Shown piece by piece: positions 41,451 to 42,438 of a stretch of 64,000 nt of DNA. The DNA lies in the IMG/VR virus record IMGVR_UViG_3300042465_005697, positions 28,280 through 92,279 of that record. The stretch is one strand, 5' to 3'. The position numbers were made by a program, and so were the translations under genes. The stretch comes from a virus (taxonomy: Duplodnaviria > Heunggongvirae > Uroviricota > Caudoviricetes). Every line of letters begins with the position of its first letter. Position 1 is the stretch's first letter. The notes below the pieces were generated by a model that did no database searches, was not told where the DNA came from, and saw only the letters and a program-made list of their open reading frames with translations.

Positions 41451-41481
41451 TTGACAAAACAAAACAAATGTCGTAACTTTG
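41451..41481 (+). promoter_or_regulatory. Bacteroidota-type promoter (TTGACA...TAACTTTG), duplicate of 41225
   Basis: Same -7 box TAACTTTGTAAAACAAA. Confidence 0.5.
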
Positions 41482-41488
41482 TAAAACA

Positions 41489-42438
41489 AAATCGGAAACG
41501 TCCGATAACGTTCTTTGAAAGATTAGATTATCCGTTCAGGAGTAAGTAATGAAACTGATAAAGATATTGGGCCGTGTATAGTCCATAAAATAAACTACGA
41601 AAGTAGGATAAAGTGAACCCTTAAGTGTGTTGGGTTTGCGGTTTAGGAAACTGAACTTGAGTACACAAGCGGGATACCGTTTAATCTTTAGTACCGAGGT
41701 CAACGATGTAGGGAAAATGGTTAAATGATAAGGTGATGTGGGTCATCTTGTTGCGATGGGAACATCTATAGGAATAACCCGTAGGAATATTGCAAAAAAT
41801 ATGGTTATCCAATTATATTATTGCGTGTTCCAGTATCAGAGGGTACTTAAAACCGAAAGGTATGACAACAAACAGGTGGTGCTGACATTGTCCTTGATGA
41901 ATCCCTACCAAGGGACTTATCACGAAGTAATCTTAAAATATCGAAATGGGGACATTTCACGAAGCAGTTTGGTATTTCGTTGTTCAAAAGACAACGAATC
42001 TGAAAGACGGACCACTGCTTTGATCAATCCACGACACAAAAACTTTAGTGTTAATGAAGTAACATTTATAACTATAAAGCAAAAGTGTCCGTCAGGTAAT
42101 AGTGAAAGGTGACTACATAGTAATGAGCCGTTCATTGCACAGAAAGATCGCAAGTCTGACTGTATTCTTACTAAAAACCTCTATTCCCGCAAGGAAAAGT
42201 TGGGGAGGCATCCTCGAAGAGAGTTGAGTAATAAGAGAGTAACTATTATCTCAAGGAGTGGTACACCTAAAAGACCGTCACTGGGGGATACTTCTCAAAA
42301 GGAAGTGGATACGAAGGGAAACAATAATCCTTCAAAAGATTCTCAACAAAAACTGTAATCTCAGGTTTTTATTTTTTAGGTAAAACTTATTAAGTTAAAA
42401 AAATTAATTAGGGACGATGTGAATCGATCCCTTTTTTT
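41489..42438 (+). ncRNA. candidate ~950-nt noncoding transcript (GC-richer; only a dubious 124-aa ORF)
   Basis: Promoter 41451..41481 to terminator 42411..42438. Confidence 0.3.
42411..42438 (+). terminator. intrinsic terminator (gggacga...tcgatccc + T7)
   Basis: Stem-loop + TTTTTTT. Confidence 0.5.

Follow-up and report, generated by a model that had tools for sequence, protein, structure and literature searches.

A full-length GOLLD RNA with a conserved leader in a T4-like, tRNA-rich phage probably infecting Bacteroidota

Introduction

The giant non-coding RNA GOLLD was reportedly described by Weinberg et al. in 2009. Members of the family are found in phages and in tRNA islands, have a published length of about 830 nucleotides (nt), and assemble as homo-14-mer RNA cages of unknown function (PMC12286853). 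The cryo-EM structure of one member, env-38 (PDB 9MEE; Kretsch et al. 2025, PMC12286853), comprises a 5′ domain of residues 1–420 and a 3′ domain of residues 421–833, and the env-38 RNA adjoins a Met-tRNA (PMC12286853). Here we describe positions 41451–42438 of a 64,000-nt stretch of viral DNA (positions 28,280 to 92,279 of the IMG/VR record IMGVR_UViG_3300042465_005697; referred to throughout as the window), and we identify them, with a probability of roughly 95%, as a GOLLD transcription unit. The phage to which it belongs is T4-like and rich in tRNA genes, and its host is probably one of the Bacteroidota.

An earlier note on this DNA, made from the sequence without database searches, had proposed a non-coding transcript of about 950 nt at this position, bounded by a promoter and a terminator and lacking a convincing open reading frame (ORF). 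The apparent ORF-less transcript is a full-length copy of an already known RNA, and the identification accounts for a seemingly gene-free kilobase and removes a false ORF from it. By itself this matters little, as the family dates from 2009, a structure has been available since 2025, and a tRNA array in a phage is where a copy would be expected. The element is a further member of a known family, of which only two parts may be new, a leader with a boxA-like box and a conserved small gene upstream. Together with the linkage to transfer-messenger RNA (tmRNA) and tRNA-Met genes, these parts provide leads on a family whose function is unknown.

Results

Identification of the GOLLD RNA and its relatives

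A whole-window scan against Rfam yielded a match to GOLLD (RF02032) at 41960–42367 on the plus strand, with a score of 321.6 bits (E = 2.7e-91; the gathering score is 150) and spanning model positions 1–416 of 416. The RF02032 model represents the conserved 3′ half of GOLLD only, and the 5′ half lies outside it. Because this 3′ match is accompanied by 5′ base pairs shared with env-38 (see below), the window carries a complete two-domain GOLLD with the env-38 architecture, about 800 nt long or about 890 nt when the leader is counted. A permissive Rfam rescan of 41150–43950 returned nothing beyond GOLLD in the GOLLD region, and no intron model there. The earlier note had named an Rfam match to a known element as grounds for refutation; with this match the novelty of the transcript is gone, whereas the non-coding reading is confirmed.

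The GOLLD core motif, which lies in the 3′ domain, is present in 83 IMG/VR viral contigs, and the whole 990-nt query including the 5′ half aligns to GOLLD-bearing viral contigs at 70–97% identity. From these we built an alignment (A1) of the window and 47 distinct full-length homologs from viral metagenomes, 48 sequences in all with identities of 67–97%. Sequence homology with the distant relatives stops at ∼42364–42374. Among the INPHARED phages, blastn with the region recovered a single distant match, to the 635-kb phage LR745206.1, and the core motif was found in the genome collection in three contigs only of metagenome-assembled genomes (a cyanobacterium, a Lachnospira and an unclassified bacterium).

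Base pairing is conserved in both domains

RNAalifold predicts 188 base pairs from A1, and 119 of these have compensatory changes. The 5′ structure including the leader helix (41527–41958) contains 115 consensus pairs in 22 helices, with 96.7% of alignment cells paired as compared with 36–40% in slid-partner controls, and compensatory double changes occur at 74 of the 115 pairs against 19–29 in the same controls. The observed 5′ pairing values were reached in none of 500 shuffles. Covariation in the 48-sequence alignment thus backs both the poorly modelled 5′ domain and the leader upstream of it. The 5′ domain proper (41569–41958, plus strand) has 21 helices and corresponds to the part that forms the cage cap in env-38. 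When env-38 was added to A1 it was canonical at 99 of 105 testable 5′-domain pairs, at about 59% identity to the window; the env-38 sequence used is a machine-read copy of Supplementary Table 4 of PMC12286853, covering 815 of its 833 nt.

The 3′ domain (41960–42367, plus strand) is delimited by the RF02032 match, is likewise supported by covariation, and includes the linker and the loops L21a and L21b. The A/T-rich linker at ∼42040–42076 (A1 columns 730–790) varies in both length and sequence and is unpaired in the Rfam consensus. Loop L21a is CGCAAG (42188–42193), with a central GC, and becomes GUCGAA, with CG, in other A1 homologs; GC/CG switching of this loop has been reported for the inter-subunit bridge B8 (PMC12286853). 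Loop L21b, whose env-38 counterpart makes bridge B9 through GC, is GGCAU (42207–42211). The loops GGGA (41949–41952) and UAUCC (41807–41810 plus flank) fall at the positions of the env-38 B4 kissing loops, as mapped through the machine-read sequence, and the GGGA and UCC loops are invariant in A1.

Promoters, terminators and extent of the transcription unit

The arrangement ACTTGACA, a 17-nt spacer and TAACTTTGTAAAACAAA occurs exactly twice in the 64 kb, at 41225–41264 and 41451–41490, both times on the plus strand. The earlier note had described two near-identical promoters here, and the conserved blocks are in fact exact at both sites. The pattern TTGAC-N15–24-TAACTTTG has two matches against 0.11 expected, with the 17-mer exact at both, and since the spacers of the two promoters differ, the duplication is confined to the two conserved blocks. 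The upstream copy, P1 (41225–41264), is a predicted promoter of the −33/−7 type found in Bacteroidota, with TTGACA, 17 nt, TAACTTTG and then GTAAAACAAA, its blocks duplicated exactly in P2. The downstream copy, P2 (41451–41490), is the predicted promoter of the GOLLD unit, with a −33 element TTGACA at 41451–41456 and a −7 element TAACTTTG at 41474–41481, from which transcription would start at ∼41486–41490.

A TAnnTTTG element with TTG about 20 nt upstream is the promoter type of the Bacteroidota primary sigma factor. Motifs of the TAnnTTTG type stand before genes and RNA genes throughout the window, and by their motifs the two predicted promoters are of this type (TTG-N-TAnnTTTG) and not classical sigma-70 −35/−10 promoters.

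The G+C content is 0.37–0.40 across 41450–42350 and 0.23–0.30 in the flanks, in agreement with the GC-richer stretch of about 950 nt that the earlier note had traced to a terminator at 42411–42438. This predicted terminator (plus strand) folds as a hairpin of 8–9 bp with one bulge at 42411–42431 followed by U7 at 42432–42438; a simple terminator scanner overlooked it because of the bulge. A U-tract directly after the last GOLLD hairpin (42368–42380, plus strand) is a possible alternative 3′ end. We also noted by eye a tandem repeat of two ∼24-nt copies (TATAATAATCG(T/C)ACAACAC(C/T)AATC) at 42449–42500 on the plus strand, between the convergent terminators of GOLLD and of the neighboring HNH gene.

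A conserved leader with a boxA-like box

The 80 nt between P2 and the position equivalent to the start of env-38 (∼41568) are no random spacer and contain three elements, a hairpin, a box and a helix. The hairpin AUCG-GAAACGUC-CGAU (41491–41506, plus strand) has a covarying stem, with the variants AUCG/CGAU, UCAG/CUGA, CUUG/CAAG and UUCG/CGAA (A1 columns 55–77), is absent from some homologs, and takes the place that boxB has in rRNA leaders. The box, GTTCTTTGAA (41510–41519, plus strand), is a putative NusB/NusE antitermination site, as judged by its conservation and its consensus match. Its GTTCTTT portion is identical in 48 of 48 sequences and its flanks are variable; in the rest of the box there is A for G at position 8 in two rows and T at position 10 in one. 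The helix pairs AUUAUC (41527–41532) with GAUAUU (41563–41568) on the plus strand and encloses a TCAG/CTGA stem together with a length-variable hairpin. Compensatory changes are seen at three of its six pairs, 87% of cells are paired, and the insert ranges from 0 to ∼60 nt among the homologs. The published env-38 construct begins downstream of this helix.

A TAnnTTTG motif is located 34–102 nt upstream of the leader box in 45 of the 48 sequences (34–36 nt in 32 of them and 41–102 nt in 13), and most of the 48 have a second such motif further upstream. With the distance to the promoter varying over this range, the box is not a promoter element. RNAalifold also offered long-range partners for it, AAAGA near 42335 and UCAAGGA near 42253; both were rejected, since neither covaries and several homologs break one of them.

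The sequence GTTCTTTGAAA agrees at 10 of 11 positions with the boxA consensus GYTCTTTAANA (PMC5725501), which is a gamma-proteobacterial one. The leader box is also nearly identical to boxA examples catalogued upstream of CRISPR arrays, among them AGTTCTTTGACA from a Bacteroidetes (PMC7665894 supplement), and boxA has been described as protecting long untranslated RNA from Rho (PMC7665894).

The box recurs on other stable RNAs. There are six occurrences of GTTCTTTGA in the window, as compared with about 0.8 expected by an estimate from base composition, and five of the six are sense-strand in the leaders of stable RNAs, these being GOLLD, the tmRNA, two tRNA contexts and, at 33938, a non-coding stretch with a promoter. 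The further boxes lie at 25206, 30305 and 33938 on the plus strand and 43829–43838 on the minus strand, in the leaders of tRNA units, the non-coding stretch and the tmRNA. Recurring boxes, usually 17–36 nt past a TAnnTTTG motif, are found also in seven other loci (L073, L016, L058, L065, L034, L051 and L084). Across 84 loci there are 125 occurrences against 10.6 expected, 109 of them with a promoter motif no more than 110 nt upstream, most of the 125 being the GOLLD leaders by which the loci had been selected. All six tmRNA leaders examined contain GTTCTTTGA, and a hairpin and GTTCTTTGAA precede the GOLLD of the distant 635-kb phage LR745206.1 as well, there following a tRNA. These patterns suggest that the phage may place all of its stable-RNA genes under rRNA-style antitermination, with the leader box as a candidate boxA that would recruit the host Nus complex in the manner of rRNA operons and CRISPR arrays.

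It is also possible, albeit on the unlikely side in our estimation, that GTTCTTTGAA is an RNA-processing signal or a site for a phage factor that marks stable RNAs, rather than a Nus boxA; the identity of GOLLD would be unaffected. The position of the box in the tmRNA leaders fits such a role, as it ends 4–5 nt before the mature 5′ end and close to the RNase P site, and in locus L084 it stands between a tRNA and GOLLD. Moreover, the GOLLD of the Caulobacter phage phiCbK does without it. The agreement with the boxA consensus and with the documented Bacteroidetes boxA argues for the Nus reading. rRNA operons carry boxA in the leader and in the spacer, after tRNAs, and the box here is placed in leaders and after tRNAs in exactly this manner, often with a hairpin before it as in the boxB-boxA order of the rrn operons. 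Long untranslated RNAs are, furthermore, known to need protection from Rho (PMC7665894).

Alternative readings of the GOLLD stretch

The large RNA could in principle be the 5′ part of a longer precursor of some other product such as a co-transcribed tRNA, and serve as a processing spacer or chaperone for it. A tRNA-Met(CAU) gene adjoins the 3′ end of GOLLD in 12 relatives and lies 150–470 nt upstream in 10, and some GOLLD RNAs have tRNAs in the linker (PMC12286853), as we also see in phiCbK. In the window there is no adjacent tRNA, the nearest being 4.5 kb away, and the unit ends in terminators. With some 190 covarying pairs and conserved loops for putative inter-subunit contacts, selection therefore acts on the large RNA itself, and we consider the precursor reading very improbable.

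The longest internal ORF is a 124-aa frame beginning with GTG (41738–42112, plus strand). If it encoded a protein, the conserved flanks would be its untranslated regions. The frame is open and tblastn reports "homologs" of it in 80 loci, which merely reflect conservation of the nucleotide sequence. It is open in only two relatives, L073 and L016, both 97% identical to the window; the other 45 of the 47 homologs have extra in-frame stops, and 25 of these also have indels that are not multiples of three. Substitutions are even over the three codon positions (1366/1280/1327), without codon periodicity, no Pfam or PHROG match was found for the frame, and it runs from one RNA domain into the other and lies partly within the Rfam match. 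Variation in this region preserves base pairs. In the six public contigs examined, gene callers had left the GOLLD stretch empty apart from one 37-aa call. The earlier note had doubted this frame for its composition and its overlap with an antisense ORF, the latter being a 77-aa frame at 41920–42153, and the doubt was justified: the 124-aa frame is a spurious, chance open frame, no protein is encoded in GOLLD, and we give the coding reading virtually no credence.

Equally negligible is a self-splicing group I or II intron, or the remnant of one. Such a reading might be prompted by the length, structure, higher G+C content and lack of coding of this phage sequence, by a GAGCCGT recalling domain V and by a real group I intron 0.8 kb away. 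Yet no intron model matches 41150–42560 even at E = 1, the promoter and terminator belong to the unit itself and exons on either side of it are lacking, and in none of the homologs is the element seen as an insertion, present or absent, in a host gene. GAGCCGT (42124–42130), which the earlier note had rightly judged unconvincing as domain V, is the loop of the GOLLD hairpin GUAAUGAGCCGUUCAUUGC in the Rfam alignment. The intron, coding-gene, 5′-untranslated-region and tRNA-precursor readings are thus rejected on comparative, Rfam and covariation evidence, and 41451–42438 is read here as the GOLLD transcription unit.

Several points weigh against this reading or parts of it. Where the transcript starts and ends, and whether the two promoters are active, is predicted from motifs and folding. 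The boxA assignment is built on sequence match, position and conservation, with Nus binding putative, and the box could instead be a processing site or a site for a phage-specific protein. No such box was found beside the GOLLD of phiCbK, and the box therefore belongs to the RNA operons of this phage clade and not to the GOLLD family. That a cage would form is an extrapolation from env-38, with which the window RNA shares about 59% identity, and the B4 kissing loops of the window are complementary over just 3–4 nt as opposed to 5 bp (GGGAU/AUCCC) in env-38. As to the host, the scan of the genome collection with the GOLLD core motif yielded no evidence.

A conserved small gene upstream of GOLLD

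P1 precedes an ORF at 41283–41432 (plus strand), which the earlier note had given as a 50-aa frame driven by the first promoter. The gene is real and conserved, directly upstream of GOLLD, with the correction that it has 49 codons and a stop. Of the 83 related contigs, 47 have a gene for a protein of 46–55 aa immediately before GOLLD. The ORF is kept intact in 25 distinct versions with 35–60% amino acid identity, always just upstream of GOLLD, and these share the motif YxY..G.K.(W/Y)T..N..FA..RA..YGT..VY.E. The 49-aa ORF has been called as a gene in public metagenomes; searches of Pfam and PHROG gave no match, and the sole homologs retrieved were those of its own cluster. The upstream promoter copy is thus predicted to drive a genuine conserved small gene, and its position makes the 49-aa protein a possible partner of GOLLD.

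Phage context and host

The window encodes a terminase and a T4 gp20-like portal and has 25 tRNA genes at 16942–36988. Among cultured phages, the portal is closest to those of a Microcystis phage (39%) and of Flavobacterium phages (38%). The gene order orf204, orf250, orf49, GOLLD, (HNH), tmRNA, orf559, peptidase and ClpB-like ATPase is common to the relatives. In 12 relatives a tRNA-Met(CAU) gene starts no more than 10 nt from the aligned 3′ end of GOLLD (the equivalent of 42375), and 10 others have one at the upstream distance given above. In phiCbK (JX163858.1, 104215–105528), where GOLLD scores 165 bits and has a tRNA-Gly inside the linker, a permuted tmRNA and two tRNA-Met(CAU) genes are neighbors of the RNA. 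phiCbK is an unrelated phage of the alpha-proteobacteria, and the neighborhood of GOLLD, tmRNA and tRNA-Met recurs across phyla. The promoter type, the 38% portal identity to a Flavobacterium phage and the tmRNA intron subsite described below indicate indirectly that the host is probably a member of the Bacteroidota.

The tmRNA gene (43210–43824, minus strand) is split in the T-loop by a 220-nt group I intron at 43228–43447, with exon 1 ending in ...GGACCGGGGUU at 43448 and exon 2 beginning with CGAGUCCCCGCACCUCCA at 43227. ARAGORN did not call this tmRNA because of the intron. The insertion site, after the second T-loop nucleotide, is a subsite reported only from the class Bacteroidia (PMC11915505). 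The tmRNA genes of the close relatives L073, L058 and L065 are uninterrupted. Immediately downstream of the split tmRNA gene of the window is a free-standing gene for an HNH endonuclease (42560–43108, minus strand; phrog_3322, E = 2e-18); since a 69%-identical copy stands beside the intron-less tmRNA of L073, it is not simply cargo of the intron.

Four paralogous tRNA-like genes of 105–134 nt are located on the plus strand at 28789–28893, 34683–34795, 35572–35705 and 36745–36852. They have common acceptor, D and T arms ((G/A)GUCAGG...GGUUCGA(A/G)UCCUGUCCUGACUA) and extra sequence in or around the position of the anticodon arm. The Rfam tRNA model gives three of them 35–37 bits, and the fourth, at 35572–35705, was recognized by eye only; none was called by ARAGORN. 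Two plus-strand stretches, 33912–34800 and 35036–35920, are promoter-driven, GC-richer and free of ORFs of at least 90 aa, with a 70-aa ORF at 34811–35023; the first also contains a boxA-like box. They have no Rfam match except at their tRNA-like ends, are kept in the close relatives L016 and L018 (80–97%), and are possibly structured RNAs as well. ARAGORN called, in the tRNA arrays of four related phages (L018, L024, L074 and L081), several tRNAs with "anticodons" of two or four bases (tRNA-???), which could be frameshift-suppressor-like tRNAs or miscalls.

Discussion

A model for the production and role of GOLLD

The features described above can be arranged into a model, in which the host RNA polymerase would start at the Bacteroidota-type promoter P2, at ∼41487, and the nascent leader would present the small hairpin and the invariant boxA-like GUUCUUUGAA. 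This box would recruit NusB/NusE and other Nus factors, as happens in rRNA operons and CRISPR arrays, and the complex would shield the ∼0.9-kb untranslated RNA from Rho termination and may aid its folding. Transcription would stop either at the U-tract past the last GOLLD hairpin or at the terminator at 42411–42438. By homology to env-38, the 5′ and 3′ domains would then fold and a protein-free, D7-symmetric 14-mer cage would form, with the variable linker (∼42040–42076) facing its interior.

Encapsulation, tRNA display and ribosome binding have been suggested as roles for the cage (PMC12286853), and the present data favor none of these. The company of a tRNA array, tRNA-Met, tmRNA and a ClpB-like ATPase suggests that GOLLD may act in translation or in the handling of ribosomes during lytic growth. 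We speculate further that the GOLLD of this clade is made by an rRNA-style, Nus-modified transcription complex, through a boxB-like hairpin and boxA and with the same device used for the tmRNA and tRNA units, and that the 46–55-aa protein is a dedicated partner of the cage. This combined proposal is doubtful as a whole; if true, it would offer a first way into the production of GOLLD and the identity of its binding partners.

Comparison with known systems

The GOLLD of the window resembles env-38 in its division into two domains, of which the 3′ one is conserved and the 5′ one more variable, in its 5′-domain helices (99 of 105 pairs) and in a variable A-rich linker. Candidates for the bridge loops of env-38 are L21a with GC, L21b with GCA, and GGGA/UCC. 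The two are alike also in their phage location by tRNA genes, with tRNA-Met nearby in relatives of the window phage. They differ in that the window copy has its own predicted Bacteroidota-type promoter, is only ∼59% identical, has no tRNA in or beside the linker and has shorter kissing-loop complementarity. The 80-nt conserved leader with its hairpin, boxA-like box and extra helix with a variable insert is not part of the env-38 construct.

ROOL is likewise a large, ornate, protein-free phage RNA found by tRNA islands, forming a homo-oligomeric cage of unknown function (PMC12286853), and the Rfam scan gave no ROOL match in the 64-kb window. In sequence and fold ROOL is unrelated to GOLLD; its 5′ part is intertwined with its 3′ part, and it assembles as an 8-mer.

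For the leader, the closest parallels are the rRNA-operon leader (boxB, boxA, boxC) and the boxA of CRISPR arrays; the GUUCUUUGAA box of the window matches boxA and comes shortly after the promoter, ahead of a long RNA that is not translated. As in the rRNA-operon antiterminator, a hairpin often precedes the box, which is found also after tRNAs inside operons. The window differs from both in that no boxC was recognized in it and in that the box is on phage stable-RNA genes (GOLLD, tmRNA and tRNAs) and not on rRNA or CRISPR loci of a host. There is also a parallel to the nut sites of phage lambda (boxA, boxB and the N protein), in that transcripts of the phage itself bear a boxA element. We identified no N-like protein in the window phage, however, and the order is hairpin and then boxA, as in the rrn operons, rather than boxA and then boxB, with stable RNAs as the targets in place of the delayed-early mRNAs of lambda.

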